Source: Amphiscolops sp. MND2022 (taxonomy: Eukaryota). Taken from it: a stretch of 64,000 nt of DNA. The position numbers were made by a program, and so were the translations under genes. The stretch lies in contig OZ076409.1 in NCBI GenBank assembly GCA_964187785.1, positions 63,118,001-63,182,000 of the forward strand, read 5' to 3'. The notes below the pieces were generated by a model, which had not been told where the DNA came from, ran no database searches, and saw nothing but the letters and a program-made list of their open reading frames with translations. Below are positions 11,160 through 37,598 of the stretch, piece by piece. Position 1 is the stretch's first letter; every line of letters begins with the position of its first letter.

Positions 11160-11430
11160 ATTTCGGTCGACGCATTTTCCTCATGTAAAAAAACACGACT
11201 TTTACAAGGGCTAGTTTTTTTATTTTCGTCAGACCACAGAGCTCGCCCTGTGTATCACTTTTTAGTACAGAGAATAATCAGATCAGTGGGAAACCAGCGG
11301 GCACTGGTTCGAGTCCCCGCTTTAGCCTGAAACTTTTTCGTGCCTTTGCAAAATTGGACGAAACTAAAGGGTCCTCCATTTCGAGTTTTGTTGACACTGC
11401 CACACTTTTTATCAAAATTATTTTGTCTCA
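11160..11430 (-). repeat. HINE-like repeat, left part, split by the LTR element (continues at 29179-29660)
   Basis: GTCGACGC at 11166-11173 is the inverted complement of GCGTCGAC at 29632-29639. Joining the flanks restores the family motif tgtctca-aagggtcccc. Confidence 0.65.
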
Positions 11431-11831
11431 TGTGATGCCATGATGCATGTCCTCAAAGATTCTATAAATCTGAAATACTCTGAACTCTTAACCAAAGCAA
11501 TTAGTAAATATATTCTAATTTGGAAGCTAAGAAACTTCATTTAATATATCCTGTACCAAGCTTCCCCGATTCATCCTGTTGCTGTCACATTGTTAATTGA
11601 TGAAACCTACCCTAGTTAATAGAATATATCTACTCGGAGAAATTGAGAATTCTTCCTAACAATCGGTCTTCCTCCCGCAATTCGAGAACTGAGATCTCAA
11701 AAATAGATTGTACTCAGAACTAGCTAGCTACAAGATATAAGACAAGACGACTCCGCTGTTAAAATCTTAGACTTCTTATGTCAGTAATAAAACTTCTAAA
11801 AGAAACCACCACACAACTTTTTAACAGCTCA
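11431..11831 (+). repeat. 5' LTR of Gypsy element
   Basis: tgtgatgccatg...ttaacagctca; 3 substitutions versus the 3' LTR by eye; AATAAA near the end. Confidence 0.95.
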
Positions 11832-11833
11832 AT

Positions 11834-11846
11834 TGGTGCGACCAAG
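11834..11846 (+). promoter_or_regulatory. Putative primer-binding site
   Basis: TGGTGCGACC 2 nt after the 5' LTR (TGG pairs with tRNA CCA); the priming tRNA was not identified. Confidence 0.6.
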
Positions 11847-12902
11847 AAAATTCTTCTTTCTCTCCCATTCATTTCACACATTTACAATTGTTGTACACCT
11901 TTTCTCGACTTTCTCATTCGATATCTCTTTGTTCGACACACAGTTTTTCCACCTCTCAATATCGCATACCGTTACTAACTTCAACGTTGCAACCAATTTC
12001 TATTTGAAATTGATCCGTGTTGCTATGGTTCTGACTGCGTTTCTCAACGTAATTCCTGTCAGTCATATTTCTTGGTTCTGACTACGTGTCTTGACGTAAT
12101 TCCTGTCAGTAAATTTTTCGTTCCAACCACCTCCGAGTGAATTCGTGTTGGCTTTCTTTCTTCCGTTCCAACCGCAGACGTGCGATACGTGTTGGCCCTT
12201 CTACAGTGCTATCCAGCGATTCCTGCTAGTAGAAATCTCCTTGGTTCTAGCCGCTTGGATCAACTTTAAAGTTGGCACACCTATATAACACATATTTTCT
12301 ACATAACATAATTATAATACTTTTCTTGTTCTCTCTTCTATACTACACACAATATACAAAACTCTTTTAAAACTAGCTTACGGATCCAAATACATAACAA
12401 ATAAAATATATAACACATACATCACATATTTATTTATATAACTTTCATTTTTTCATACACCTATATAAAACAAATTCTAATACAACCTCTTGGACACATT
12501 CTTCATTGTTGATGCCGCCTTCAGTAGACACTGTAGTTAAACTCATTGTCTGCTTTTGGTTCTTTGTTGCTATCGTTGCCGGTCTTGCACTTTTTCTGGA
12601 CAAATTCTTAATTTCATTCATACCAAAATTTTGAAGTACAACCTTTTTCTTCTATGTTAACAAGCATAGTACTACCTCTTTTTGGACTACATAGTATTTA
12701 CCACACTTTCCATACACTTATCCAATATATACAAAACCCATTCCTTCTCTCTATAAGTATTGCACTTACTATTTTCTTACAAGTTGTTTTCATAGATCAA
12801 ATTTTACCATATAATTCACAATTCAATACAAAATATCTTCTTTTCCGATACATCTATCCTTTATGGCAATCTTATTGTACTAACCAAACTTAATATCATA
12901 TA

Positions 12903-15661
12903 ATGCTTCCCACTCCATTCACATTCACTACTGAAAAAAGACAAAATCGATCTCTTATACAAGATGTAACACCTTTTCTACATAACATTATCTTTCAGTA
13001 CACAAACCCACTTCCATTTGAAACAGAACCCCATATATTACATACTATTCCATTAGTACGAGAACATTGTGATTCTTATCTATATTATATCCACTATAAA
13101 ACACTTGACATTACACCATCACAAACCCCTTTTCAATTTCTTTTTAATCCTGTTAAAGGAATAAACCTTGGAACATTTTATAGAACTATACACCCAAAAT
13201 ATTACACTTTCTATACAAGATGTTTTTCATACATACATGCAAAAACTCATTGAATTCAATGAAAACCAAGACACACCACCTTATCGTCCTTCTCATTTAC
13301 AAGAACTAAAACACAGATCTGAATATTTCGAGGTCCCAGATCTTAACACGAAAGTCCAAAGACATGATAATCCTCATTATTGGTTACAACGAGATATTTT
13401 ACAAATAAAACATTTTCAGTACAGATTCTTTAACAACATTATCCTTACAGATGACACTATACCTCAAGTCAAAATTTTTACACAATTCTCATTAAAGTTT
13501 CTTAGATTTAACTATCAATTACTTTGGGAACAAAAGGACCAACAAGCTTATGTTAACTTCCCTCAAATATTAACACATATAGAACTCTTACCATACATCA
13601 TAAAAAATGAAAACAAACACTTACATTACAGAGATCTTACTTCAATAAATGTTACACATTTTGAACAAATAAACTTAGACCACAACTTTGTACTTGAACA
13701 CTCTGAAACATCAGATAACAGACCTTATATTACATCTGATACTTCTTATACAACAACTAGTGAAGAACAAACAACTAGTGTTGAACCTTCATATACAAGA
13801 CAACAATCAGAACAATCAGAACAATCAGAACAAGATTCCCCAATACAAGACGCACTTGTTAATCTTTTTCAAAATCCTGATCCCTCTCAAGAACAACCAC
13901 TATACCCACCACAATCACAAGTCTCTGATATACGACAACCGAATCCTTCTGAAACAAATACAATTCACAATACATCAGATTTTTCTGAAGAAACAGTACA
14001 AAATACACGAAGTTTTACAATAACCGATGATTCAAATCTTGTAATAATTCCTACCCATAATATCACACCAAACGAATTTACAAACCAAAACCAAGACAAC
14101 ACTTCAAATACAAACCCAGACAATACCTCTATTTTATCTACATCTAATACTAATATTACACAACCCTCTCAGACACAAATACTAAGTCCTCGAAATTATA
14201 ATCCACCTTCTGTTCCACCTCAATTCTCAACTCAGATAAACACTCATGACTCTCCTCACCAAAGCTCATCGAATACACCCTACACTGCACAGAACAATAT
14301 TACAGTACATTTTCAAACACCAACTCCACCATCATCTTCTGAAATACACACTTCGACTTATACTCCAGCTCAAACCAACTCAGTACAAACTACACAAACT
14401 TTAAACATTAACACCATCCATTCCAACCCATCTACAAATTATACCACTGCCAGACATCTTTCTCGACCTCCATTACAACCTATATTAACTAATCCATTAT
14501 CATACAGTCTCACCAGTACTAATCCAAGTCATACACAACAATCTCAGATAAATTACAACACACCCAACCCATTAAATACTCTTTTTTCTCAACATACATC
14601 CAATACAACCACTCCTACATTACAAACTTCTCAATTTCATATACCACACCCTCCTTCAACAACAATTAGAACTAACCCTCACTTTCATAGTACTTCAACT
14701 ACTTCTTTACCTAATATTTCAAATAATCCTACGTACAATACAACACCCCCATCTACTATATCTCAAAACACTATGTCACACCCAACATATATTAATTCTT
14801 CTACTTCTATATCAGAACCCATTAAACCTTTTGATGGACTCGATCACAACTATACACCTGAAGAATATTTACAACATATTGAGGCACGTGTTACATTTTC
14901 CTTAGGTTTACAACCTACATCGGAACATGAATATAAATTTTGGCACGCCCGTCGTATGGCTTTCATACAATGCTCTTTAACAGGTACAGCACTCAGCTGG
15001 TACATTCGTTTAAATGACACTTATAAACTTTATTGGCACGCTTTTGTACAAGCTTTCAAAAAACAATTTTCCTCACAAAAGAACGCTTACTATGCTCAAG
15101 TTGAAGTCCTTAATTTAACCAAAAAAGATAATGAAACAGTACGTCATTTTGCACTCAAAGTTCAACAGCTGGTTGAAAAAGGCTGGTGTAATGAGAATAT
15201 CCACTATAAACCTTAAATGTAATGAAATCTTCACAAAAGGACTTCCAAAAAATCTTAAAGACTTTGCAAATAAAAGGCAAGTAAAACACACCTCCACTGT
15301 TCTAGAACCTTCAATTCCTTTTCACACATTAGTAAAACTTGTTGACGCTGAAGATATAGCAAACGACAAAATCAGAACACATGATCTTGCACTTGAAATT
15401 AATAATATTACAAAACAATTGAACACTCAAACTCTTGATCACTCATCTCAAGAACAACTTATGTATACACAACCCAAAGACCCAAATAACAAAAATAAAC
15501 CTGCATATAAAAAATATTGCTCATACTGTCATAGAACAAATCACTCTATTTCTGCTTGTTTCAAAAAACAACGAGATGATGAAGATAAACGAGAAGCATA
15601 TGCTCGATCAAAATCGCCCACAAAAATCATTCGTTCAGTACTTTCGTTCTCCTTCCAATGA
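12903..15661 (+). pseudogene. gag: gag-like ORF (frameshifted): long N-terminal and S/T/P/N-rich extension, capsid domain, CCHC zinc knuckle
   Basis: PFDGLD...PEEYLQHIE...LTGTALSWY...WHAFVQAFKKQF capsid-like motif, and CSYCHRTNHSISAC knuckle in the next frame (15131-15661). Start position uncertain. Confidence 0.8.
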
Positions 15662-18600
15662 CAGAACAAAACACTATGATAATCGATACCGAAGTCGAAG
15701 TACCTCACAAGACAACTCTTACAATAAAAATTACTCACAAAACCGATACCGTTCTACATCTCGAGATAGAGACAGATTTCGTTATGACAAAAGTACTACT
15801 CCTCCACACTACTCTAGATCAAGATTTGATACATATAAACGTGATTCTCGGTCTTACCGTTCTCCTTATAGATCTTCTTATAGATCCCCATATCGACAAA
15901 ACTCTCGTCCTAGATACAGATCACGCTCCTATTCAAGAGATAACAAATTCACCAAGTACACAAATTCATATAGACCACCTTCAAGACCAAGAGATTCTAG
16001 ATTTTCTAGATCTCGCTCACACTCAAATTCCAGAAATAAAATCAATATGATACAACAACAAGACCAAACTGACCCTATCAAATTTGAAGTACACATGTAT
16101 CACCCAACAGCAATGGCAAATGCTGTCACACCTACAAGTTGGTTTTATACACTATATGTACATACCCCATCAAGTATCGTACAAAGAGACAACCCATCTA
16201 GATTAGAAATTGCATTCCTTCTAGATAGCGGTGCTTCCATTTCTGTACTCAATTACCCAACATACATAACTCTTACAAAACTTCTAGATATCAGATCAAA
16301 TCACACCTCTGATGTTGGACCAACTCGAAATTCCAAAACATTAACCGTTGCAAACCAAACTGAAGTTCCTATTTTACATTATACAAATATAATTTTGAAC
16401 ACCACTATTGATGAAAACTCTCGTTACTTTTCAGTACTTTTCGCAGTAGCTGATATCAAATACAATATCCTTGGCACACCATTCTTTGAAGACAATATAC
16501 AAAACATAAACATACAAGACTTTACACTCGAATTTAAATACCAATGAAAAACACACCCAAATTATGCAAAGTTCACAACACTCCTATCTAAAGATTATCC
16601 ATACTTCTCTTACATTTATAGAATTAACTCAAAAACTCAAATACGTCTAAAACCCAAGTCTTCAAAAATTGCACACTTTCCAATTAAAAATTATCATAAT
16701 CTTCATTTTACAACTACACCACAAAACCACTTCTTTCCTTCAGTACCTCATACCTATTTTGCTACCAAATTTCGTACAAATTTCAATTTCATTGAAGTAT
16801 TCACAGATGACAAGCCAGATATTTGTGCAACTTCCACAGACCAACTATATTGTACAATATGATGATCCTACAACCCCTCCTCCTCAATTCTCTCTACATC
16901 AAATATATATGACAAATAACGACATTCCAAATCAAACTTCTCCTATATATAACGTTCAGCCTACTTCTCATACTTCCGAAAAACGCATTTTCCCTTCTCT
17001 ACCATATACTTCTGAAAATTTGAAATTTATTAATAAATTTAACTTCCAGTTTTCTGACCTTACAGATTCAGAATACATTACTCTTTGCAATATGTTACTC
17101 AAGTATAAAACATGTTATGCAACTCATAAAAACGATGTTGGAAAAATTTCAACACCATTTCGTATACGACTTAAACCAAATGCTCAACTTATGACACAAC
17201 GTCCTTCCAAAGTCCCTACTCACTACCCAGACAAACTTAACGTACTTCTCAAAGAACTCGAAAAATATAACATTATCAAACAAATTGGTTCCTCTCCTCA
17301 AGACAAACCCGTTTATGGCACAACTTATTTAAACCCTCTTATTATAATCCCCAAGAGAGATACAATAAAATGTGTATTAGACGCTCGACACCTTAACTCC
17401 AATACAGAACAATCTGATGAATCTTGGCCTATTGAACTTCTTGCTCCACAACTAGCACGCGCAACTAAAAAGTACAAATTTGCTATTGACCTTATGTATG
17501 CCTATGCACATAGACCTCTTGACGAAGATAATATAAAATTTTCTAGTTTCTCTTCCGGAGATAAACTTTTTGCTTTTATCCGAGGCTTTTATGGTCTCAA
17601 AGGACTACCAAACTTCTTTACAAAACAAATGTCTACTTTCTTTAAAACTCTTATAGAACAAGGTTTCGCTCCTGTCTACATTGACGATATATTACTTTTA
17701 TCTGATTCCAAAGAACACATGTTCCAACTCGTAGAACCATTACACATTATTAGTACAAAAAACAATCTTAAAATAGCCCCTGAAAAATCCTTTTTCATGC
17801 TTCTTAAGGTCAAGTTCCTTGGACATGAAATTGGTTACAATACAATTAAACCAATCCATTCAAAAATTACAGCTATTCATAAGATCCCTTCTCCAACTGG
17901 CAAAGTTGCCCTAATGAGTTTCATTGGCGCACTCAACTTTTACACCAAATTTATTGAAAAACTACATATTAACCTCAAACCATTTTACGATCTTTTACAT
18001 GAGAACACTCCTTGGAAATGGACAGATGAACACGAAAGTCTATTCCAAAAACTTAAAATGTCTCTCACTTCTGAAACAGAATTAACAATACCAAATACAA
18101 AACATCCATTTTTCATTACAGTTGACGCTTCCTTTATTGGATTAGGCGCTGTCTTATTCCAGTTAAATGAACAGAACAAAATGAAAGTCATATCGTACAA
18201 CTCTCGTATACTTAATCCACAAGAACAAAAACTCTCCACACTCGATAGAGAACTTCTTGGTATAGTACACGCACTTCAAATCAATGAATTTCTCATCACA
18301 GGTTCTCCCCATCCAATACACATTTTTACTGATCACAAACCTTTATTACATTGTTTTACAAAGAAAGGTAACCTCAGTCCTCGTTTCTACAGAGCTCAAA
18401 TGCAATTGACAAAATGTTCAAAACTCAAAATAATTCACACTCCTGGAAAAAATCTCTCTGTTGCCGATATGTTGAGTCGCTCCTTTACAAAAGCTGAATT
18501 ACAACTAAACCAGTTAAAACATAAACACCTCCCACCACAAATCGATTTTGCACTTTTACAAGATAACACTCTTAAACCTGTACATTACTTAATAAAACAT

Positions 18601-20933
18601 GAAGAAATTTTACCTCATCAAAAACATGACTCTCATCCAATTCTCGCTGATTATGGCACAGATCAATTCTCTATTCGTATCAATGATAAAGGAAATGACA
18701 TTGTTGTCAAACCGTTACAATCCTTCTCATTCATATCCATAACTCCTTTTCAAACTAAGTTCAAGACACCTATAAAAAAGAACAATAAAACCCTCCATCA
18801 ACAATCTTTCTTACTTAATGATACTGACGTTACAAGTGATGACGAAGATCATATATACACCAGAATTCCAAAATCTGACTCTTCCTTCTTTCAAGACACA
18901 ACATTACAAACAGAAAATTATTCTACTTTTAACCAATCAACTCACACTACCTCACAAAAATCAGTTTCTGCAATAAATGTACAACCAAATTTACCATCTC
19001 TCACACACTGTCAACAAATCATACCTTTCTATGATACATCATTTTTTAAGTACAAAAACTATTTTCAAGGTTTCTTCCTTCCAGATGATTACTCATTAGA
19101 CATAAACACTCTTCAACAACAACAATCCCAAGATCCGGTTCTTAGAACTGTTTATTCTTGGTTATTAATCAATGAAAAACCCGAATTTATAACACCTCTT
19201 ATCACTGGTACTCCATTTCTACATGTATATTACAAAAGATTTTCACAACTTTTCATTGACGAATCTACAAACCTTATTAGTCTATATATTACCAACCCTA
19301 CTGTTATAAACCAACCCTCTACTCCAAATTTTATACAAGACACTATTCGTATATGTCTTCCTTTTCGACTGTTCAAAACTGTCTTTAACAAACTCCATGA
19401 ACACTCTCACACTGGTATGAAAATTACCTACAAAACATTCAAACAATATTACTACATTCCATTCCTTGAAAAATGGCTTTCCTTTTTCATACATGATTGT
19501 ATTGAATGCCAACGTAACAAACATTTCAAAATGAAAATTCAAACTGCTTCTACACAATCATTTTCAGAACATGCTCCATCCTTCAACTATCGAATTTCAA
19601 TGGACACTAAAGGACCTATTAATCCTCATTCTCACAACAAATCCTATATACACGTGATAATTGACGCTTTTAGTCACTTTGTTGTTACAGTACCCATCAA
19701 ATCAAACAACGCAAAGACTGCTATCAAAACTCTTCTACACCATTGGATTATTAAATTTGGACCACCCATATATCTTGTCACTGATCGTGGATCAGAATAT
19801 GTTAATAAAGAAATGGCACACCTTTGCACACTTATGGGAATTCGTCATTCTCCTCGAACAGCTTATTCTCCTTGGACAAACGGCCTTGTTGTAGTACAAA
19901 ATAGAAATCTTGGTACCCATCTACGAATGTTCTTACATGACACACCTAAAGATTGGGCATTCCAAGTCCATATGTGCTTATGCATATAATTCACAACCAC
20001 TTTCAGAACTCAACATTTCACCTCACGAAATTGTTTTCCACACCCGACTCAGAATACCTCTTACATTTGATTTGAACCTTAACCGAGACACCTCTAAAAC
20101 ATGTATTTCACGATATTGCTCTCAACTTCCAACACACTCCCATTATGATAAATCAGATTTAAACCCATTTTTCTATAAAACCCTTTCAAAACCCATTCCC
20201 CATTGGTTTCTCGCTGTAGAAACTGCTGTTACAAATTTATTCTACAGTATACGAAAACACTCTAAGAAAAGTCAATTCACACGCATACATTACAAAAAAG
20301 TACCATGAAGGTAAACCCCTTCCTATTGGTACCTTTGTTTTAAAACGCAATTTTACACACGTTCATTTTTCTGACAAACTAAAACCCCTTCGGATTGGAC
20401 CATACAAAATACTTGATAGATTATCAGATGTTACATATGAACTACTTGCACAAGATGGCTCTATAGTACACGTTCATAGAAATCATTTAATTCCATATTA
20501 TCCAAAAGAACCACTCTTATATCCACAATTGCGTAATTTTATGCGCTTTTCAGACACAACTCAATTCCAAATTCCACAACCTACCAAATATGCAAACTGT
20601 GATTCTTCTCCTTTTAACTCAGACGAATCGTTGTCAGAAGAAGATTCTCCAACATTTGTAACTCCATCATCATTTAGTACATCCAATCAGAATACACCAT
20701 CTATAACATCCAATGACAAGTCTTTGACTCCCTCAACCAATGACAACTCCTTATATAGACATATAATTAATACCCCTCACACTAATGTCTCTAGTGACAG
20801 ATCAAGACACTCATCTAATAACCAAACAACTTCACTTCCTCCTCTAATTGACAGAACCACAAAAACTACTTATAAACTACGACAACAACCCAAATTAGAT
20901 TATAGACTTTTTATTACACCCTCAAAACTGTAA
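15620..20933 (+). pseudogene. pol: pol: RS-rich linker, aspartic protease, reverse transcriptase, RNase H, integrase (several frameshifts/stops)
   Basis: LLDSGASIS (~16224); VYIDDILL (~17677); TVDASFIGLGAVL and FTDHKPL (RNase H); HEHSHTG...CIECQ, MDTKGP, TDRGSEY, and NGLVV where NGLVE is expected; GPY motif RIGPYKILDRLSDVTYEL at ~20391. Confidence 0.95.
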
Positions 20934-21019
20934 TCCTATCATTCTATCCGCTGGCTCACTCAAAACTAGTCACTCCATTTGAATGAAATATAACCCATAA
21001 CAAGTTATCTCAAAGATAA

Positions 21020-22258
21020 CCTTTTGAAAACACTTCAACAATCCTGGATCCTCCCTCTGATATATCTCTATCAGCTCCAAGTATCCCTTCCACACCTGAA
21101 TCTTCAGTATCTAGCACTACAAACTCTAGTAATGTAACTCCTACTACTCCTTCTAAAAGACCAAGATCATACATCTCTGAAACCACCTCTTCATCATTTC
21201 TTCACAGACCACCTATAACTGAAATCCCTATAAACCCTCGTCCTCAACAAACCCCTATTAACACTCCTATTATACACATACCAAACCCTGAAAGTGTTGA
21301 ACAATACGTAACATACAAACATCCTACAGCTATCAAAACTGTTAGACTACAACCTCAACTTAATCTTGTACAAATCCCTGATACTGAATATACAAAGCTA
21401 CCTTCACTGAAATTACCATCAGAACTTAGCACTACTTCTTCAAAACTTTATCCACCATTAAAACCTCTTAGAAAACTTTCTACATCACTCTCAAATCTCT
21501 TAGACAATACTTCAGACTACGCTCCATCACAAGACACAAGCTCACTTTTTGTACCTAAACATCGATATAATCTTCGTGACTTCCACTCACGTAGACTTAG
21601 TACAGACACTTCAACACTCAATTTTTCCACTCTTTCTAGCAATTCTGCACTACGACTTGTACGACAACACGCTCAACCATTGTCCTCTGACACACCATCT
21701 TCAGAACTCTTCCAATCTCCTTATTTTACTTCTGGTTTTGAAACCGCTTCATTACTCTCATCTAACCCTCAGACTGCATTTTTATCAGGAGACCTTTTTT
21801 CACAAGTAGTAATCCCTACTCCTGTTCCTGCACATCTTCGACAACCCGAATACTATACTGCAGAACACTCTAGACCCCCAACTCCAAATTTTGCTGACTA
21901 TCCACTTAGAGTCGATGGTATAACCATCTACGACCCACAAAACGATCCCCGATTTCCAATTCTTGCAGAACGTTTCATTAATAACAACGACCTTTTATCT
22001 CACAAACGCAAAGAAACAGAACTAAAACGCCTTCAGACATCAAACCTAGAAGTTAATTTTGAAGTCAAAGTCAAATTTCAAGGATTATATCCACACCCAA
22101 TATTTCACGTTTCTAAAATAGAACATAAAACCTCTCCTGCTCCTTTTGAAGTAGTACATATTGAATTTGAACGCGATCTTAATATACCCACTATCACATA
22201 TGGCAAAATTGTCTTCTGCAACCCATATTCCGGTCTTAAATATAAAACATCTTTTTAA
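21020..22258 (+). CDS. Unknown S/T/P-rich reading frame between pol and env (no ATG)
   Basis: Stop-free frame from after TAA at 21017-21019 to 22258 (~412 codons); the ORF track reports only its last 192 aa. Confidence 0.55.
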   Translation, partial: PFENTSTILDPPSDISLSAPSIPSTPESSVSSTTNSSNVTPTTPSKRPRSYISETTSSSFLHRPPITEIPINPRPQQTPINTPIIHIPNPESVEQYVTYKHPTAIKTVRLQPQLNLVQIPDTEYTKLPSLKLPSELSTTSSKLYPPLKPLRKLSTSLSNLLDNTSDYAPSQDTSSLFVPKHRYNLRDFHSRRLSTDTSTLNFSTLSSNSALRLVRQHAQPLSSDTPSSELFQSPYFTSGFETASLLSSNPQTAFLSGDLFSQVVIPTPVPAHLRQPEYYTAEHSRPPTPNFADYPLRVDGITIYDPQNDPRFPILAERFINNNDLLSHKRKETELKRLQTSNLEVNFEVKVKFQGLYPHPIFHVSKIEHKTSPAPFEVVHIEFERDLNIPTITYGKIVFCNPYSGLKYKTSF

Positions 22259-24912
22259 GCCCTACACAACCTTTTACATAACAAATCTAATACTTTATTT
22301 ACATTTCTTCAACTCTACCTTTTCTATACCCATAACACCCTCTGACACAGAAAACTATCTTCCATCGGATGACCCAAATATTACAAATCTCATGGTTTCT
22401 CATTATGACTGTGCAAAACAACACAATCTGAGACAATTTAATCTACTCAATGTAAAACAATGCACTGAAGCTCCTTCCGACATTAAGCATGCAAGTGTTA
22501 AAGCCCGTGTATATGTTCGAGCAAAAGCTAAACGCATCAAAGCTTTCAAATGTGTTGCTTATGCAAAGAAAGAAAGGAAAATATGCTTTCAAGGTTCCGT
22601 AAAATACCGTCGTGTTGATAGAACCGTATGGAATCATAATACATTACCGCTCCCTGTTACTCTTGATCCAGTAGAATGTAAAAACATTATAAGACATTTA
22701 AATGGTACAAATGATAAAATACTGAATAACCTTCAATACAACAAAACCTTTACACTCTTAGAAGATCATTATTTTCAAAAACGTTTAGAACAATATCAAA
22801 CTCCTTTCACTGTATATCAATTGAACAAGATGTATACAGGTACATTTACATTTATGCCTGCTGACAAAAACTGGATATATGATCCTACTCAAAACCCTTT
22901 TCATAACTGTCCCGCTCATCACCAATTTGAAGTCAACTTAGTTAGTTGGCGACTAGAAATTTCTGAAGTAGAACTTACATATGATGATACATCTAATGAC
23001 ATGATAATCGATGGACATACATTACCCTGCTACTTTGCAGATGGTTTCTGTAAACCAACTACAAAAACTCCTTTTACTCTTGTTTGGTTCAATGAAGATT
23101 TTCGTCTAATTTTTACCTTACAAGTCTTTATTGGACGTATGACTAACATTGAAGATAGATATTGGATTGAAACAGACTCTTTTGTACATTCTCCACATCC
23201 AATAAAATCTAAAACAGCTTCTGGTATCAAAGGCACAGAATATTCCTATGTTTATGCTCCTCATACACAACATCCAAATAATCCAAGTCTTTCAAGATTT
23301 GAAGTTTTTCCTACAGCACAAACCTTTTGTGGTAAACCAGACCCTCTCTATTCTACACAATATTCAGACCTTTTTGTTACATACACTGATGGTTTCAATA
23401 TGCATACAGGACAACCCAATTCTCATTCCATGATTGATGAATATATTTCTGGTAAAATAGTATTGGACACTTCAAATAACAAGTTTGTATTCCCTGCATT
23501 AAATGTATCAAACAATTTTGCTACCATTGATTATGATGTACATATAAACACCAAAATCGATTATACTATTAATCATGTTTTCCGATCAATGACAGTACAA
23601 GAACTAAATACTCTTCATACAATATGTGAACTAGAACGAAACCAACTTCTTACAATACTCGCAATGTCAGTACAAAACCCTCAACTTGCTGGTTTCCTTT
23701 TAACCGGTAATAGAAGTAACTTCTTATACGTTGAAGGCTCAACCGCCTGGCTTTACGACTGTCCTCATTTTTTATCTCCTTTATACAAAGCAGATAGATG
23801 CTTTGACCGTATACCCATACATTTAATTTAAAGATACTTTAATGTACGTTGATCCTATTACAAGACAAACTTATGATTATGCTACACCAATTACATGTGA
23901 TAATAATCCACGTAACATTATTGAACTAGATCCTGATTCAGACGACCAAGACTTTTACATTCTTGGACCTGAAACTATTAAACGCAAACCTCCACTAATG
24001 TTTACACCTTCACAAATCAAAACTACAATACGTCCTAATACTTTTACAGCCCTAGATGCTGGTATATATTCAAATGCAGAACTTGATCAACTTTGGAACC
24101 GTATTTTATTTTCCAAACATTCTGACTCTACACTCCAATTACTAGGCAAAGCTCTTAGTTATTCCTTCATTTCATCTAATACTCCAAATTACGATGCAGA
24201 TTCCCCTCAAGATTCTGGTAATCCTTACAATACATTACGTATAGGACTCCATGATAAACTCTTGAATTTAACTCCTTTTTTTACACCTACATGGTTTTCA
24301 GATGCTTTTATTGCACTTTTTGGATACCCTTGTTACATTCTCACACAATGTGGTATATACTTTTCTACATTTCTTTTCGTACAAGCTACCCTTACACTCA
24401 TTGTCAAACTTTACAAAACAATATCCATTAAATATAATCTCAAAAATAATATTACCTTATTTAGTTCTATAGCACATGGTTTTTTTAATGTTCTTACAGC
24501 ACGAATGGTCAGTGACTTCCATGAGACTCAAAACAAAAAACCCAAAAGTACACTTTTAAAATCCAAATCTATAGATAATTTTATTGACACTTCTCCAAAT
24601 CTAATTAATCATTCTACAGATGTTACTTCCCCTCCACCTTTCTATACTGAACGTCCTAACAAAATTCAATTTCCTAAATTCAACTTGTTTCCGAAACGAC
24701 ACCACAATTCTCACCATAAAACAGCTCCACTTCCTTTCTCTCCTGTTCAACATCCTCCACTTCCTAATTATACTCATGAAAACTTTCACTCGAATGACAA
24801 TCTAACTACTCAACATGACATTTTAATTAACAATCCTGCCACTTCTACTACGGATACACCAATTAAAATCTATTCACGGATAAACTATCCTTTTCCTCCT
24901 CCATCTTCTTGA
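22200..24912 (+). pseudogene. env: env-like membrane glycoprotein (resembles chuvirus G / herpes gB-type class III fusogens), split by a 4-bp insertion
   Basis: Signal-like FYITNLILYLHFFNSTFS; Cys-rich ectodomain (YDCAKQ...KQC; ICELERNQLLTILAMSVQNPQLAGFLLTG...VEGSTAWLYDC...CFDRIPI...VDPITRQ...PITC); N-glycosylation sequons; C-terminal hydrophobic FIALFGYPCYILTQCGIYFSTFLFVQATLTLIV. Removing TTAA at ~23823 fuses the two ORFs (IPIHFKDTLMYVDP). Confidence 0.78.
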
Positions 24913-25151
24913 ACACTCTCTCAGTTTTTCTGTAACTCTCTTTCAGCACACTTGCCTACTATCTCTTCACAATTGCTACTCCCCCACCGCTCGAAACTCT
25001 TGCAGAAGTTCATCTTTCTCAGCCCAATAATACTTCTCTAATATTAACAGTCTTCAAAAACTCTTCAACTAAAGTTGATAAATCCACTCGTTAGTGTAAT
25101 TTATAGTACTTTCACTTTAAAGGGCTAAGGCCTCCTGGAATAGATAACACT

Positions 25152-26519
25152 GTGACTGTTGATGTTTTTAAAACAATGACACAAGCACAAATTGATCTAC
25201 AAACACAGCTTGAACAAGCAACCCCAACAGATCTTATAACTAGACCTCTTTCAAATGATTCTCCTGTTCTCTATATTGAGACCCTAGAACAAACACCTCC
25301 AACTTTTCTTGAACCAATGGAACACACAAAAGTTGAAAACGAAAATTCAAAACCTACTCCTTCACAAGATGATACTGATCATACACAATCGACACCACCT
25401 CCTCCAAAAAAACGATATGAAATTATGAAAGATCCAATCTTTCTTTCATCACCAATATATCCTCCTTCAATACCTTCAAAAATCTCACTTTGTACGAATC
25501 GCGATGATCATTTGATCCCATTTCTTTCTACAGACGATTTCGTCTTCAAAGCACAACTAACTTCTCTATATATGCATCCTACTGACTATTCATTTCGCTT
25601 ATATGACAAAATTCAAGACTTCTTCACATCCATTGCTTCCAAAATAATGGGTCCATACCAATATTGGCTCGATAATGGAGTTAAAATTTTCTCTCTCCAA
25701 TTCAATTTTCTTCGACCATCTATCTACGATCTCAAAACAGATGAATCTGATCCATCTTTTCTCTCTATAGCACAAAAAGCTACTCATCATCAAACATACA
25801 CTAAATTTCTGCAATACACGAAACCACAAAATCACATTTTTGTCATTTACAAATATACATCACCGTTCACAATGACGAATATGTACACTCTGGACCACTC
25901 CTGTATAACAGGCTACCTTCGAAACTATGACCCTATAAAACAATACTTCTGTTTGCTTCCATACAATAATACTTCACGCCCACTTATTGTACCTCAAGAA
26001 TATCTCATACATTACGATGATTTTTTGTTGCCTTGCAACATTCCTACACAAATTGCCAAACCTCTTACTGTTATTAAACACCTAGTATCTTCTCCACTTG
26101 ACGATAAAGATAGAACGTACTATACAGCACTCTACAAACAAACGTATTCCTACAACGAACTTCTCTTTGTATCTGCCAAAACTATCTCTTTCATGGTACA
26201 AGATGAACAAAAAACTGAACATAAATCACACGTTTCACCTATAAAAAACGCTCCTGATAAACTTTCCTCAGTATTAAACAACCGAACACTTCGCGACATA
26301 ACAAATTTACTTGAACCCTATAAACGAAACTCCTCTGAAACACCTATCACAACACTCACACATATACTACACTGCTATGACAGAACACACAAACTCCTTC
26401 AAACACTCGACTTAGACTCTCAACGCATCACTCAATCATCCCAAGCAATTCAATCTGCTTTGGAAACTATAACTACTCTTTTAACTCAACTAATCTTCAA
26501 TAAACTCTTATACAGGTAA
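25152..26519 (+). CDS. Unknown accessory ORF (~450 aa) inside the LTR element
   Basis: Uninterrupted long ORF on the element's sense strand; basic PPPKKR motif; helical C-terminus; no recognised family. Confidence 0.7.
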   Translation: MTVDVFKTMTQAQIDLQTQLEQATPTDLITRPLSNDSPVLYIETLEQTPPTFLEPMEHTKVENENSKPTPSQDDTDHTQSTPPPPKKRYEIMKDPIFLSSPIYPPSIPSKISLCTNRDDHLIPFLSTDDFVFKAQLTSLYMHPTDYSFRLYDKIQDFFTSIASKIMGPYQYWLDNGVKIFSLQFNFLRPSIYDLKTDESDPSFLSIAQKATHHQTYTKFLQYTKPQNHIFVIYKYTSPFTMTNMYTLDHSCITGYLRNYDPIKQYFCLLPYNNTSRPLIVPQEYLIHYDDFLLPCNIPTQIAKPLTVIKHLVSSPLDDKDRTYYTALYKQTYSYNELLFVSAKTISFMVQDEQKTEHKSHVSPIKNAPDKLSSVLNNRTLRDITNLLEPYKRNSSETPITTLTHILHCYDRTHKLLQTLDLDSQRITQSSQAIQSALETITTLLTQLIFNKLLYR

Positions 26520-26922
26520 TATAAAGTTTTTAATTTTTCTTCTCTGGTACATTCTTTGATACATCTTTGGCACAATATCAAAGGTATTTTTACTTTTGCT
26601 TACTTTTTAAACTAAAATCTTCCTTCTGAATGAAATCTCAGGACTATCTTTCACGTCTAATATTCTTTCCTACAGTACATGTAAAACAGATAACTCCTTC
26701 TATCAAAAAACAAATACAATACAAGACATACAAAACAATATAGCACAACACCAAATATGATACATTCCAGCTCCAAATTTTGTTGTACATCTTTGACTTG
26801 ATATTGACATTTTTCTTACACTTCCTCTGTTTTAGAAACATCTATTCTTCTTCCTCCTCCATCCAAATTCTTTCAGAACATCCCAACTTCTCTTTCTTCG
26901 CATTCTTCCAACCCTCGTCATC

Positions 26923-27375
26923 ATGGCTCCAAATGCTGGAACAAACGATATTCTCACAATGACTTCAGAGTTTTCGAAAGGGCATAGTCTCAAAGCCGCC
27001 ATATTTCACACAATGGCATTCAAACTCTCGCTTGAAATTCACAAAAACAAAATTACGCCAAACTGTCTCATCGCTTTCTTAAAAGTACTCTACAATGTCA
27101 GGCTAATAAAGAAGAAAAAAATCACTTTTGAGCAATACTCGCGGATCCATCTTCAAGGACCTAAAATTGCCATTTGCGAAACGGCATCTAATGTTGTTTT
27201 CGTCCTAAATTCTTCCTTCACTTCAAGGGATCAGTACTTTCGTACTGCTCTCCAAGAAGCCACAGACGCTTTTAATAATATGCTGAAAGATTTCGGGTAT
27301 ACGCAAAAATTAGAACTCTATGACCCGATCCAACACCAAACTCATCCTCCATCACAAAATCCTCTCTTTCAATAA
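26923..27375 (+). CDS. Unknown accessory ORF (150 aa) inside the LTR element
   Basis: ATG-initiated ORF with a plausible globular composition; no recognised family. Confidence 0.5.
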   Translation: MAPNAGTNDILTMTSEFSKGHSLKAAIFHTMAFKLSLEIHKNKITPNCLIAFLKVLYNVRLIKKKKITFEQYSRIHLQGPKIAICETASNVVFVLNSSFTSRDQYFRTALQEATDAFNNMLKDFGYTQKLELYDPIQHQTHPPSQNPLFQ

Positions 27376-28777
27376 TCTCTATAACAAAAACTTCTACTTA
27401 CTTCTATTTCACTCTTCAACTGCATTTCGTCTCCAAATCCTTCATCTTCTTTCGATGATGCATTGAAATGTGGTTGCTGATCACTCCTCCAAAGAACTCC
27501 TACACATGCTGACACTCTTCACTCCACCCACACACGATGGTCAACAACATCCATCTACACTTTGGGTTCATCGACGTTGCCAAACTTTGTCCTCGTCACT
27601 GGTCTTCACACTCCACGATGACTTCTTGACTGGTCTTCACACCTCAAATGCTGACTTCTTGACTGGTCTTCATACTCCAATGGACTATACTCCAAATTTC
27701 AAACATTATAATCAAAACTTGAGTCAGTTTTCAAACTGAACTGTATAATCAATTTTAACCAATATAACTTGTAACTTATTTTAATCAAACTATAACTTTA
27801 ATATAGTATAGTGCTATATACCCTTATCTAATCTTTAGTGCTATATACTCTTATCTAATCTTAATCTTCTGTAATCGCATTATAATGACCCCTATATTGC
27901 AAAATCCCTTCAAAATTCTACCGATAATTATCTTGTAACCACAATATTAACTGATCCTATTGTCTTGAGTATAGTACATTGACGTAATCTTATCTAATTA
28001 TGTTGTTACATCTATAATACACTTCAAAAATATTTCTCCAATACCCATCTTTTACAGAACACAAGTCCTACCTACAGCACAAGAAATTTTCTAAGATTTT
28101 TGGACAAAAAGTTTTCTTTTACAAAATATCTTCTACACCTTTGTTTTAATCCCCAAAAGCATTCCCAAAAGTTTTCCAAATTTTTCTGTACAACTCCTAA
28201 AAAATGTCACTTCTCGTTTTCTAATGTTTGAAACTTGAAATTGCCAAAGTTTTTTTTTTCAACTTTTGCCTCTGCTCTACTCTTCACTTTCGTTGAAAAC
28301 TCTCACTCGAACCTTGACTTTTCGAAACTTCTTCACTTTTGGTTCACATACCCGCCAATGTTGGTTCACAAATCATTGACAACTTCACGCTTTAATTCTT
28401 CAACTTGAAAAGTTTTCAATGCTGACTAACTCATGTTGATGAAAGAATTTTTTCCAACAAGCCGATGGCTGATACGAAAAAGAAACATGAAATGATAAAT
28501 AGTTGTGAACAATAACTTCATAAGAACTTGTCAGTCAAAGAAACTGAAAGAACTTGAACCTTGCTTGAACCTTTTTGCACCAATTGAATCTTCTATGACG
28601 TAAGAAGTCAAATCGTCTTAGGTTGTTCTCACTCCTTAAGTATGGTACTCTACAAAACGAAACTCATGCAACCCTAGTACAACACATATGAAACAAATCC
28701 ATGCATATAACAAACTTCTAGAACTCCTCAAACCCAAAGTGCATATATGTAATTTTTATTTTAAATTCCCGGTTGAT

Positions 28778-29178
28778 TGTAATGCCATGATGCATGTCCT
28801 CAAAGATTCTATAAATCTGAAATACTCTGAACTCTTAACCAAAGCAATTAGTAAATATATTCTAATTTGGAAGCTAAGAAACTTCATTTAATATATCCTG
28901 TACCAAGCTTCCCCGATTCATCCTGTTGCTGTCACATTGTTAATTGATGAAACCTACCCTAGTTAATAGAATATATCTACTCGGAGAAATTGAGAATTCT
29001 TCCTAACAATCGGTCTTCCTCCCGCACTTCGAGAACTGAGATCTCAGAAATAGATTGTACTCAGAACTAGCTAGCTACAAGATATAAGACAAGACGACTC
29101 CGCTGTTAAAATCTTAGACTTCTTATGTCAGTAATAAAACTTCTAAAAGAAACCACCACACAACTTTTTAACAGCTCA
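28778..29178 (+). repeat. 3' LTR of Gypsy element
   Basis: tgtaatgccatg...ttaacagctca followed by the CTCA target duplication. Confidence 0.95.
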
Positions 29179-29660
29179 CTCAAAGGGTCCCCTTCTAGTT
29201 TTTCATATTTTGCAACAAATTAGATTTCAAAAACCCGAACGGTTCCCCTTTTACCTTTTTGGCACAATGAGACTGTTTCAAAATTCTTAAACGTTGTCTT
29301 AAATTAGTTTTTTTTCAATTTATACCCACAAATACTTTTTTTGAAACTATCCAAAATTTTGACGTAATATCCGGAGTAAAGCGCTATATTCGAACATTTG
29401 ACATTACATCCGAAGTATTTTGCGTTTTACTGAGGAGGAAGAGGGGTAGGATCCAAAAATAGCTCGCATTTGTCACGGTATATCCGAATTTCTGTTTTCC
29501 GAGCACGAAGGGACGGAGTGTTCAATTTTTTTCCGAGTTTTTCATGAAAACGTCCAGGGCATATTTGAAAAACTGCGCGTTTTGAAGAAGAAAGCAGAAA
29601 AACGTTTCTTCATTTTTAAGCCTTAGATATAGCGTCGACTTTAGACGTTCCCGTCTTGTT
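29179..29660 (-). repeat. HINE-like repeat, right part
   Basis: aagggtcccc motifs; family terminus gccttagatatagcgtcgactttagacgttcccgtcttgtt. Confidence 0.65.
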
Positions 29661-30991: not shown

Positions 30992-31764
30992 TGTAACGGC
31001 AAGCAGTTATCGGTCGCTTAACGCGTTAACAGAGGTGGAGGAACCTGCAGGAATGGGTGAATCGCTCGGAACAGGCGCCCATCGCCACAGATCCATTTTG
31101 CCTCCAGGGGTGAAATACGTCCCGGGGCCGCGGGTGCTTCGACGAATACTGTCCAACCGGTCCTAGTCTTTGATTGCTAATAGTAACGGGCATCTTTCTG
31201 ACTCTCTAAAGACCACCGCTTAACTAGCATATAAAAACAATGCCAAGAATAAGGTAAATTTCCAGTTCCAGGGTGACATGTGAATAAGATCTAAAATTGG
31301 GGAATAAGATCTAAACTAGCGCTAGCGCTACTGAATACAGCCAAAATCACTGAAAATACATGAAAACAGGCACGAATATGGCAAACCACACAGCTAAAAA
31401 GCTGGGGCGCAGGGGCTCCAAGCACCAAACAAGGATCTTTAGGCGAAAAGACTCATTTTTACGGTTTCCGCTACATAGGGTAGGATAATGCTGAAAATCG
31501 ATAAAACCGGTGTTAGCACCTCAAAAAGAGTCTATTTTTGGATGTTCTTGCCGTCTCTGGCTTCTGTCATGGCGGCGCGCCCGTGTTTTTGCTCGTTCTT
31601 GCTCTTTGTTGTCGAAGTACCTGCCAATTTCGTGGAAACAGCGAAAAGAGCAATCACATGCTCAGTGCCACGTCACACATCGAATTAGAATTTTTGACAA
31701 AATTTCTGAACATGTCAAAGTTGCAAAATCGGTTGATATTGCTGTACCAGAGCTTGCCGTTACA
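30992..31764 (-). repeat. 3' LTR of non-autonomous element
   Basis: 4 substitutions versus 37599-38371 by eye; preceded on the minus strand by purine-rich GGGGAGTGA (31765-31773). Confidence 0.92.
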
Positions 31765-32765
31765 TCACTCCCCGGGCTTTATGCATGACGTCCCTGTCAT
31801 GCGGAGAGGCTGGCATTGAATACATCGCCACATCATGAGTGCAATCCACGGGGGTCTCAAACTGGTGATGTTGCAACGGTCCAGTGACACTGTCATCTTT
31901 TGCTGATTGGGCAACCATGAGGTCTTGCTTCTTGCCATCCAGAGAACCTGCATCGTCCAGAAACTGTTGAAAAGAGCTAGCTCGAGAGCTAGAAAACCAG
32001 TACTCAAAATGCACCTTGAAATTGATCAAATCCAAGATTCCATACATCAATCAAAAAAGCACCACTTTTTTAGCACGAGTTTTCTGCAAAAGTCTGAATG
32101 GGATCCTGCTAGCACTTTGGTTTTTGGACGTCTAAAATTTCTTTTACGGAGCGCTCACGCTCCAAAGCGCACGTGGTTTTCAGGAAAAACATCTTTTCCA
32201 CGGCAATAAAACTTCAGTTTGCAGCACAGTTAAAAGTTCTTTTCGCTAAAACTTCTTTTCAGTGGAAAACCACTGTTTAAAAGGAAAACAAGCTGTTTCT
32301 TCGATACTTTTTTTACAGTTCGGCTTGGTTTGGGCAACACGCACTGATGTGCAGCTCCATACCTGTGTAGAGTTCAGTAGCATCTGTCAAGGAGCGCATC
32401 AGAAGCAAACTACGAACTGCTCATAAGCATAAGCGCTGGAGTAAAGCAGACAAAGGTAGATCAAATCTTGCCATTTGCAGATCAGGAGCGCGCGCGCTCC
32501 TTATTTTTCCGGATATCACGTTGGAATCTGGAGGAAACTTCTGGAAATCTTGGAAAAGAAAAACAAAAATAGCACCTTTCGGGCGCAGCAATACATGTAG
32601 AGTTTTTGGGTTATTTATTGAATTAACAGAAGTATTTGAATTCAAACATCTCAAATAAAACTAAAACAAAAATGTCGCGACGTACGTTTACATGACTACT
32701 AAAATTACGAAACAAAGTTGCAGAAAAAACTGCTCCAACAAAAACATCACGCTGCAAGGTATCCA

Positions 32766-33740
32766 TTACCAAACGTAGTGATATCCTCCGGGCGTTATCC
32801 AATTGAGTTGATGAGTGTAGGGGTGTTTGTCTTCAAATGGGGCTCCCGGGGCCTTAGTTGACTCCCCGGGCCTTAGTCGTTGAGCACCCTCTTTCACATG
32901 AGGACAAAATTGAATGCCTGACATAAAAATGCAGCAGGAAAGATTAAGCGTTGACGACACCTCCTCCCCCTTTGAAAAGAAGTGGAGTGTGGTTTGGACT
33001 GGATAGACATCACCATCCAATAGCAGCAGGACATGCAACAAGCATGAAGCATCAGGAAATCCGATAAAGAAAATCTTGGAGACTGGGTCTGTCCCAAGAC
33101 TGGAATAGTTGTTCGGAGGACGGCCACGCCTATGTCCCTTCGGTCGAAGCGACCATGGTAGAACTTGGCGTGGTGGACGGCCACGGCGACGTCCATCGTA
33201 AAGGGACAAGAGAACTTTTTTCCATGAGTGCTCACAGTCTGTGCGGGGTGGTCGACCACGTCTATGACCAGTTGGTCGAGTTTTAGCTGAACCACCAGGC
33301 AACCAATTGATGAAGACTGGCGGGTCCACCTGAATAAAATCCTGTAGCACACGTTTAGCAGAATGTGGCTCAAAGGAGTCTTTCCGCAAATTCGGCAGCA
33401 ACTTCGTAGTTGATGTTAGGGACTTTGTTCCAGGGAAGTGAGAGTTGCTTACAGAATCTTGCGATAAGGAAGTGGAGGGTGAGATTGATATTCGTTCATT
33501 CTTCGTATCACTTGAGTGGAGGTTGCGCTCGCGCAACCCATTATCACCGGCGTGATATTCAGCCAAAGTCTCAGCAATACACAAAGCAATACATATGGTT
33601 GTGGTGTCCAAAGATATTGGGTCCACCCCCATGTCTTTTGTTGGCGGTGTCAATGGTTCTGATTCGACAGCGTCTGAAATATTGATCTGCATTTGTGCTA
33701 GCGCTCGCGCTATCGCTCGCGTAGCAGTTTCTCCTGGCAA
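32766..33740 (-). CDS. Hypothetical protein with three AT-hook-like (RRGRPP) motifs
   Basis: 324-codon frame on the element's sense strand containing GHRRGRPPR, GRRRGRPPR and GHRRGRPPN; start codon is non-ATG and uncertain. Confidence 0.5.
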   Translation of the reverse strand: MPGETATRAIARALAQMQINISDAVESEPLTPPTKDMGVDPISLDTTTICIALCIAETLAEYHAGDNGLRERNLHSSDTKNERISISPSTSLSQDSVSNSHFPGTKSLTSTTKLLPNLRKDSFEPHSAKRVLQDFIQVDPPVFINWLPGGSAKTRPTGHRRGRPPRTDCEHSWKKVLLSLYDGRRRGRPPRQVLPWSLRPKGHRRGRPPNNYSSLGTDPVSKIFFIGFPDASCLLHVLLLLDGDVYPVQTTLHFFSKGEEVSSTLNLSCCIFMSGIQFCPHVKEGAQRLRPGESTKAPGAPFEDKHPYTHQLNWITPGGYHYVW

Positions 33741-36700: not shown

Positions 36701-37564
36701 TCTCAAAAAGGACTCCAACGGCCTTTCTGGTTGTCGTTACATTATGTAGCATAACCCTCGAGGTTTTGGGCTGCTTTCTATTCATTTTTGCAACTGCTGT
36801 GGCTAATACTTCGAGCGCTCGCGCTCGTACCAAGAAAAGTACTCAAAAATGCCAAAAATCACGTTTTTGCGACTTTTGCACTAAAAATCGCACTTTTTTC
36901 ACTGAAAACGGGTGCAAAAGCAACACTTAGTTGCAACAGGGTAAAACTACAATACACAATCTAAAAATTTTTTCATACCATACTCCGAAAAACTGATACT
37001 TCTGAAATGAGGGGTGGTACTTTCGTCGTCTTTTTTCTCAACACCCAGACCAGCTAGAGAGAAACAGTTTGGACCGTCGGCAACGTCAGCACTTGTTCTA
37101 CCTTTCCACCAAAAACCATCCCTCTAGCACGTCTCCACGAGAAATGGGAAAGGAGAGTCGGGAACACTCGTTTCAGCTCATCTATCAGTCGGATGGAATA
37201 TGGTTCAACCATCAACTTCACCTCTCGTACATAGCCAAAAACGCTGAAATGAGCTGTAAAACACCTGTTATAACATGCGTAACGGCTTTCTAGCGGTTCG
37301 CTAAGCCATTACAAAGGTACCCGCTGATGGGAACGTGCAATTTTAGACGATACCTGTCAACAAATACCTGTTATCAAAACATACCATAGGTATTCGGAAA
37401 ATCCCCCGAACTACAGGAAAAATACCAAAATATAATGTCATATCATCTAAAAAATTTGGAAAAACTCTGGGTAAACGTCTCCTTCCAGAGTCCAATCGCT
37501 CTTGGCGTCCAATACCAGGGGGTCGGAAATTTCAAAACCATATAATAGGGCAGTAATCGGAAGC

Positions 37565-37583
37565 GATCCCTCTGTGGTCGCCA
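37565..37583 (-). promoter_or_regulatory. Primer-binding site, tRNA-Arg-like
   Basis: Minus strand TGGCGACCACAGAGGGATC resembles the complement of the eukaryotic tRNA-Arg 3' end (...GTGGTCGCCA); lies 15 nt inside the LTR boundary. Confidence 0.7.
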
Positions 37584-37598
37584 AAAAATGAGGTCTCA

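Follow-up and report, generated by a model that had tools for sequence, protein, structure and literature searches.

Envelope glycoproteins (env) of the herpes simplex virus (HSV) glycoprotein B (gB) type have been described in Ty3/gypsy retrotransposons across many animal phyla (Chary & Hayashi, eLife 2026; PMC13524379). In the sections of that study considered here, 114 gypsy elements were recovered with chuvirus-like BEL/Pao glycoproteins as baits, an ancient association of the gB-type env with pol is argued for, and the expression of these errantivirus envs and their role in entry are left open in the discussion. The pairing of a class III env with gypsy is therefore not new in itself, and an earlier note on the DNA described below, which knew such glycoproteins only as captures by BEL/Pao elements, was mistaken on this point. 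Among the latter, the Anakin elements of mosquitoes carry a chuvirus glycoprotein (Dezordi 2020, PMC7642597; Dezordi 2023, PMC10084718), and the parts of the second report considered here mention gypsy fragments near such glycoproteins in insects, with no clear capture. As to size, foamy-like endogenous retroviruses (ERVs) are given as reaching 17 kb in the portion of the source used here (PMC6431247). The present analysis concerns a 64,000-nucleotide stretch of DNA from Amphiscolops sp. MND2022 (contig OZ076409.1, positions 63,118,001 to 63,182,000, forward strand; hereafter the window), and in particular the env gene of an 18-kb long terminal repeat (LTR) retrotransposon within it.

With a probability of about two in three, this gene is the frameshifted env of a young 18-kb Ty3/gypsy insertion and encodes a predicted class III glycoprotein that was likely inherited with pol, likely serves cell entry, and probably depends for its translation on leaky scanning past a CUG-initiated gene. 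The earlier note had placed a glycoprotein gene at 22200..24912, and it is indeed there: from an ATG at 22200 to a stop at 24912, the coding sequence spans two frames (22155-23831 and 23827-24912), both halves of which score above the Pfam cut-off for Monjiviricetes_fusion (PF24664; E 5.5e-11 and 3.1e-7). Relative to three out of three unbroken natural copies (94% DNA identity), the window env differs by exactly one insertion or deletion (indel), a frameshifting 4-bp insertion near 23,821, equal in length to the one that the note had seen at about 23823. The unbroken copies have a frame of 908 codons (902 aa from Met), and those of four subfamilies, A to D, match PF24664 at E 1e-22 to 2e-27. 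The residue pattern quoted at the outset is present as CELERNQLL (23625-23651), EGSTAWLYDC (23733-23762) and VDPITRQ (23848-23868). The proposed architecture of signal, cysteine-rich ectodomain and C-terminal hydrophobic segment stands in its last two parts, with 14 ectodomain cysteines whose spacing is kept in all four subfamilies and a transmembrane segment followed by a Pro/Ser/Thr-rich tail of ~165 aa. Its first part is less secure: the signal-like stretch is weak in subfamily A, beginning ~27 residues past Met (Kyte-Doolittle value 1.42), clear in D, and in C none exceeds the threshold. None of five envs scanned has a furin site (R-x-K/R-R). The tail also bears a PPxY sequence, a WW-domain or late-domain motif, at 24633-24647; it reads PPFY in subfamilies A and B and PPKY in C and D, is kept although the tail is otherwise poorly conserved (48%, A vs B), and Pro-Pro-x-Tyr or Pro-Pro-Tyr words also occur in the env tails of several distant relatives.

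The fold of env was modelled on an unbroken natural copy (698 residues, 52-row alignment), and the model (mean predicted local distance difference test, pLDDT, 76.5; predicted template modelling score, pTM, 0.56) predicts a class III protein whose nearest viral models are those of chuvirus-like G and whose nearest solved structures are those of herpes gB. In BFVD, a set of predicted viral structures, the G of a dermapteran chu-related virus ranks first (E 8.6e-28), followed by the G of Tacheng tick virus 4 (6.2e-27) and of a xinmovirus (1.8e-26); Monjiviricetes glycoproteins span E 9e-28 to 1e-20 (template modelling, TM, score 0.3-0.47; identity 11-15%), and the first herpes gB has rank 35. 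Foldseek against the PDB gave herpes gB in 36/36 of the matches listed (best E 1.1e-12), while VIA over 48,161 chains returned the gB of human cytomegalovirus, HSV-1 and murine gammaherpesvirus 68 as the sole scores with Z of at least 8 (9.1, 9.0 and 8.9; 414-436 residues aligned, root-mean-square deviation 10-13 Å), with rabies and Chandipura G below them and Bourbon virus Gp lower. At the level of domains, VIA matched the pleckstrin homology (PH) and fusion domains of rabies G (Z 6.7) and domain IV of gB (Z 6.2), the PH-domain matches covering model residues 52-363, and in the ESM Atlas the features of all matches listed are those of PF24664, gB or rhabdovirus G clusters. The predicted parts follow the gB/G order of a long central helix, a PH-like domain and an elongated beta-rich fusion domain, with long strands at residues 53-87 and 201-220, and the model would correspond to a post-fusion-like hairpin. 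The class III assignment made in the earlier note thus agrees with the top matches of all three structural comparisons (BFVD, Foldseek and VIA), and the structural check that it had set beforehand brought chu-related G and gB to the top and no class I, class II or host protein; the long helix expected at CELERNQLL likewise appears in the model of the unbroken copy (Table 1).

The host of env is an LTR element at 11431-29178 (17,748 bp), which by its sequence is Ty3/gypsy (Metaviridae) and not BEL/Pao, as had been proposed; LTRs, target-site duplication (TSD), domain order and a reverse transcriptase (RT) best matched by Ty3 all agree. Its gag-pol, a single ~2,600-aa frame in some copies, encodes in order Retrotrans_gag, a zinc-knuckle-like stretch, protease (LLDSGAS at 16218), RT (YIDD), RNase H, a bridge, an H2C2 plus rve integrase and an SH3 tail. 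When RT-RNase H is compared with solved structures, Ty3 ranks first (E 2e-36 and 6e-36 over 449 aa), ahead of the next match (2e-24), foamy virus (1e-16) and HIV (1e-4), and the Pfam models found in pol are all gypsy-type (RT_RNaseH, Integrase_H2C2, SH3_Tf2-1), next to Retrotrans_gag in gag. Pfam scans of the element's open reading frames (ORFs) reported no BEL/Pao-type gag or pol domain, neither of the BEL-type families Peptidase_A17 and DUF1759, and no viral N or L gene family in any ORF. The window insertion is young but defective by itself, as its eight gag-pol indels and the env frameshift leave it unable to make full-length gag-pol or env. Between RNase H and the integrase zinc finger, ~300 aa (~18420-19350) have no Pfam match.

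Homologues of env fall into clusters at 94, 78, 62 and 54% identity, each with many near-identical places in the same genome, and are accordingly treated as subfamilies A to D. Subfamily anatomy was taken from two copies of each (n=8): the order gag-pol, X, env, Y is found in all eight, with sizes of 17.7-18.8 kb and LTR pairs 98-100% identical, and a 4-bp TSD flanks seven of these eight other copies, the LTRs of subfamily D ending in TA. Exact matches in the assembly number 3,175 for a degenerate 23-nt env motif (control 0) and 730 for a subfamily-A 23-mer; these are motif matches, in an assembly that may include haplotype duplicates, and many copies are presumably partial. Env-bearing copies would amount to up to ~5% of the assembly if all were full length. 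A stop-free env frame of >900 codons is present in ~31 of the best 80 subfamily-A matches and 48 of 50 subfamily-B matches, lists that favour the best copies. The ratio of nonsynonymous to synonymous divergence (dN/dS), calculated from one A copy against one B copy (dS ~1.2), is 0.062 for the env ectodomain (confidence interval 0.042-0.080), 0.045 for RT-RNase H, 0.18 for ORF X and 0.15 for ORF Y, and comparisons with C and D, although more saturated, point in the same direction. These low values indicate that env and the accessory ORFs have been maintained by selection over a long divergence, and strong purifying selection acts on env, X and Y.

The env gene does follow pol, as the earlier note stated, though not directly, for the 412-codon ORF X intervenes in the 1.27 kb between the pol stop and the env ATG, which it overlaps or abuts. 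ORF X consists of a Ser/Pro/Thr-rich N-part with an RYNLR motif and a conserved C-part of ~150 aa. Its four subfamily versions contain a single in-frame Met in 1,569 codons (in a C copy; none in A, B or D), compared with 1-2% Met in the other frames, and off-frame ATGs number 2, 3, 0 and 1 where 6.3, 7.8, 5.3 and 7.0 are expected (codon shuffle, P 0.032, 0.026, 0.0025 and 0.002). The seven control stretches, among them the gag N-terminus, which is just as poor in G, show no such off-frame depletion. Of the trinucleotides in ORF X only GGG is more strongly depleted than ATG, and the ATG deficit extends over 1.0-1.4 kb in all three frames; elsewhere in the element the 5′ leader alone is comparable, and this in subfamilies A and B (4 found where 11-13 are expected). 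ORF X is opened by CTG-GAT, with A at -3 and G at +4, in 23 of the 26 loci scanned (one has CTA, two were not found), the window CTG lying at 21044-21046; CTG makes up 1 of 229 Leu codons in gag-pol, and CTGGAT is one of two 6-mers common to all four subfamilies, a comparable word arising in 0/1,000 shuffles. A nearly AUG-free ORF behind a conserved, rare CTG in strong context suggests CUG initiation with leaky scanning to env, and it is fairly probable that ORF X starts inefficiently at the CUG on a bicistronic RNA while the remaining ribosomes scan to the env AUG. The most serious competitor, unlikely though it is, takes CTGGAT as a signal that acts in cis, on DNA or RNA, as a promoter or in splicing or packaging; ORF X would then be joined by splicing to an upstream exon as its extension, and env would be the product of its own RNA. 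In its favour, insect errantiviruses as a rule make env from spliced RNAs, subfamilies A, B and D have an AG-TC word between the pol stop and X, and the CUG start that it disputes is deduced from sequence. It leaves unexplained, however, both the AUG depletion in three frames over 1.0-1.4 kb and the conservation, in four subfamilies, of a purine at -3 and a G at +4 flanking the CTG, and no AG precedes the CTG.

A Y-[K/N]-L-R motif at the end of pol (~20870-20905) recurs as RYNLR or NYNLR in ORF X (~21560-21580) in all four subfamilies, in both places after a Ser/Pro/Thr-rich stretch; from this shared motif, X may derive from a duplicated pol tail. The motif is reminiscent of the arginine-anchor chromatin-binding motifs of foamy virus Gag. 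None of ORFs X, Y and Z belongs to a Pfam family. ORF Y is found in all four subfamilies, has no match in the ESM Atlas, gives an AlphaFold model with pLDDT 39, and has 568 homologues, the best 120 of which are all unnamed proteins from ENA. ORF Z is homologous between A and B (60%), the ORFs at its position in C and D having no detectable similarity to it.

Under the preferred reading, gag-pol would be made from the full-length RNA, and a subgenomic RNA beginning just past the pol stop would be scanned, a fraction of ribosomes initiating ORF X at the CUG and the rest reaching the env AUG 1.2 kb downstream. Env would be anchored by one transmembrane segment, its PPxY tail might engage WW-domain ubiquitin ligases at budding, and, being uncleaved for want of a furin site, it might fuse through internal loops like other class III proteins. 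It would likely carry element particles into new cells, for example germ cells, and Y and Z would be accessory proteins made from their own RNAs. Fusion, particles and mode of translation are what we infer from sequence features. A role other than particle infection, in which env is selected for cell-cell fusion and syncytial spread of the element or for use by the host, is decidedly unlikely. Purifying selection indicates a function without saying which, intracellular transposition could by itself yield thousands of copies, and the predicted fusion-loop tips vary among subfamilies and carry basic residues; nevertheless, env stays within mobile elements with young LTRs in all four subfamilies, retains the transmembrane segment, the tail and the full set of 14 cysteines, and is under a constraint close to that on RT, which fits selection on the replication cycle of the element.

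The relatives of env bear on its origin. Among 1.84 billion representatives scanned, 2,082 are related to it at E<=0.001, the nearest in sequence being some twenty long unnamed proteins of 26-37% identity, and two scans of a viral contig set found no relative. A metagenome scan gave seven loci, of which only one (L057, 13 kb) is long enough for context: it holds gag, a gypsy pol (35.5% over 960 aa), an env that is 29% identical and has kept all but one of the 14 cysteines, and, downstream of env, two ORFs that are paralogues of each other. Since the env of L057, the closest kin with context, belongs to a gypsy element whose pol is related as well, inheritance with pol fits better than recent capture, and it is likely, on these sequence comparisons, that env and pol descended together from an old env-bearing gypsy clade. 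As for the features of a Jingchuvirales endogenous viral element, no chuvirus N or L gene flanks env, and its nearest relative with context is a gypsy env. It is very unlikely, and unsupported by this context, that the lineage captured a Jingchuvirales glycoprotein itself, separately from other env-bearing gypsy elements, as the earlier note had concluded: although chu-related virus G gives the top structural matches, well ahead of herpes gB, PF24664 is mostly viral, and the envs of this genome form one long-branch clade in a quick tree without viral rows (Shimodaira-Hasegawa-like approximate likelihood ratio test 100), identity to viral G in structural alignments is 9-15% against 26-37% to the unnamed relatives, L057 has its gypsy env adjoining a related pol, the element carries no viral N or L gene, and the domain I-II pattern of the relatives resembles, by eye only, the flatworm 'C1a' errantivirus env in the supplement consulted (PMC13524379).

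The ORFs after env in L057 and in two further metagenome loci (L058 and L059) are mutually similar (E 2e-4 and 1e-3 against 0.03 for the best shuffle). The protein, at 9651-12092 of L057, 2541-3137 of L058 and 2318-4060 of L059, has a disordered N-part, a conserved core of ~80 aa and a coiled coil, and matches nothing in Pfam or the PDB. Their similarity to ORF Y is too weak for a link to be drawn (profile-profile probability 1.1%, E 0.05 over 28 columns; hmmsearch not above shuffles).

Several observations weigh against the reading given here. Regarding descent, one of the seven outside loci shows pol, so that co-descent of env and pol rests on a single context, and the env tree was quick and built without viral sequences. 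Regarding the fold, structural scores are moderate, with TM scores of 0.40-0.47 to the best viral models and about 0.3 to gB at a pTM of 0.56, ~100 model residues have pLDDT <50, sequence searches of the PDB with env gave no match beyond one by chance (E 1.3), and subfamilies A and C have only a weak signal peptide. Regarding selection, dS is near saturation and every dN/dS ratio comes from one pair of copies. Regarding translation, the CTG motif was spotted first and tested afterwards, the distant relative L057 has neither ORF X nor such a CTG, one to three short upstream AUG frames persist inside ORF X, and no transcription start or splice site was identified for the env/X RNA.

The env family is of value for its thousands of young copies, for four subfamilies whose divergence provides a natural filter for conserved features, and for a sharp, testable prediction of env expression through a CUG-started ORF X and leaky scanning; it matters because the expression of gB-type errantivirus env and its role in entry are treated as open in the discussion consulted (PMC13524379). 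More tentatively, and possible rather than probable, the whole may represent an active, complex invertebrate-type Ty3/gypsy retrovirus of 18 kb, with a class III fusogen, three accessory genes, CUG-dependent leaky scanning, thousands of env copies and a wider, uncatalogued clade with a shared post-env protein family. If so, gypsy elements would have independently attained a 'complex retrovirus' grade of organisation, and X, Y and Z would be candidates for RNA export, chromatin targeting or defence evasion.

Table 1. Coordinates of the env-bearing element and its parts in the window
Feature	Position	Strand	Remarks
Target-site duplication CTCA	11427-11430 and 29179-29182		4 bp
5′ LTR	11431..11831	+	401 bp, TG...CA; 3 mismatches vs 3′ LTR (99.25%)
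Primer-binding-site-like 9-mer TGGTGCGAC	11834..11842	+	2 nt past 5′ LTR
gag-pol	12894..20933	+	broken in the window copy by 8 frame-changing indels
ORF X	21044..22258	+	412-codon ORF between pol and env; overlaps env start by 59 nt
env	22200..24912	+	predicted class III (chuvirus-G/gB-like) fusion glycoprotein; one frameshift near 23,821
Predicted central helix with CELERNQLL	23532..23666	+	45 residues, model residues 403-447
Membrane-proximal and transmembrane segment of env	24307..24414	+	followed by tail with PPxY motif
ORF Y	25176..26519	+	~450 aa (ORF of 470 codons), accessory, downstream of env
ORF Z	26923..27375	+	~150 aa (ORF of 179 codons), accessory, last ORF
3′ LTR	28778..29178	+	

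The 9-mer TGGTGCGAC follows the LTR in 9/9 copies (the window copy and 8/8 others, from four subfamilies), and a search with one tight pattern matched no cognate tRNA. Read as a tRNA 3′ end, the region 11834-11846 gives TCGTGGTCGCACCA in other subfamily-A copies, which resembles the tRNA-Arg(UCG/UCU) end TCGTGGTCGCCA reported in the material consulted, plus two additional bases, and none of the 1,512 elements tabulated there has a primer-binding site ending in GTCGCACCA (PMC13524379). At the other end, no purine-rich tract lies directly 5′ of the 3′ LTR in subfamilies A, B and D, C being purine-richer there. In all four, the 3′ LTR is preceded by a run of T/A and then a CC(C)GG word (28740-28777), and the mode of plus-strand priming may accordingly be an unusual one. 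GC skew on the coding strand is -0.3 to -0.55 across 11431-29178 and ~0 in the flanks.

Elsewhere in the window, a second LTR-bounded unit of 7.4 kb (30992-38372) has 774-bp repeats that are 99.5% identical and no long plus-strand ORF, and four near-identical 1.7-kb tandem units occupy 48495-56011 with an inverted partial copy in front. Broken frames on the minus strand at 46983-48087 have what we take to be Tc1/mariner-type transposase motifs. On the plus strand at 59173-63409, a frame of 682 codons, which has a C2H2/BED-finger-like motif towards its end, is followed by more frames (GC 0.48-0.50), possibly a DNA transposon to judge by resemblance. No host gene is evident among the ORFs listed for 29,200-64,000.

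Compared with known systems, env shares with Jingchuvirales/Monjiviricetes G (PF24664) and herpes gB the predicted fold, the central helix, a cysteine-rich ectodomain and a single transmembrane anchor, and differs from them in its identity of 9-15%, its retroelement context, its cytoplasmic tail of ~165 aa and the absence of an N or L gene. Leaky scanning from vpu to env in HIV-1, and CUG starts in the glyco-Gag of murine leukaemia virus and the C′ protein of Sendai virus, are precedents for the proposed expression: in these cases, too, a weak upstream start lets ribosomes reach the downstream gene, but the proteins are unrelated and the mechanism here is deduced from sequence.

Among retroelements, Troyka was considered and rejected, its CG...CG ends and 3-bp TSDs, in the part of the description consulted (PMC12440569), contrasting with TG...CA and 4 bp here. 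Anakin is likewise an LTR retrotransposon with a chuvirus-like class III glycoprotein amplified alongside the element, but has, in the reports as consulted, a BEL/Pao pol in place of the Ty3/gypsy pol found here (PMC7642597; PMC10084718). The giant planarian gypsy element Burro and the foamy-like fish ERVs, as far as the source was consulted, resemble the present element in very large size, thousands of copies, env homology and accessory ORFs (PMC6431247); however, Burro exceeds 30 kb and has its env in frame between gag and pol in one polyprotein, while in the present element env forms an ORF of its own downstream of pol and has three accessory ORFs around it. A literature search for a gypsy env behind a CUG-started ORF, or for a gag-pol/X/env/Y layout, found none, judged by titles and abstract openings. 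The closest counterparts are the HSV/gB-type errantiviruses, and the element shows the features of that group that were tested, as these appear in the material consulted: a Ty3/gypsy pol, gag-pol-env order, an LTR-bounded multicopy unit, an env with signal, ectodomain and transmembrane segment and a gB-like fold (here predicted), a furin site that is not always kept, and an env diverging with pol (PMC13524379). In the same material, the non-insect screen admitted env up to 1 kb past pol, and 3 kb in later steps, as against 1.27 kb here; copy numbers reach hundreds but were counted at >98% identity and cannot be set directly against the 3,175 motif matches; neither 'accessory' nor 'extra' occurs as a word in the main text, no CUG or leaky-scanning expression of env was seen, and a motif search of the supplements gave no near copy of the window env, although these hold domain I-II stretches only, so that a relative may be represented there. 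Relative to these errantiviruses as so described, the present elements measure 17.7-18.8 kb, carry ORF X in the interval from pol to env as well as two further ORFs downstream of env, and are likely set apart from known members by their size, accessory genes, copy number and probable translational control.

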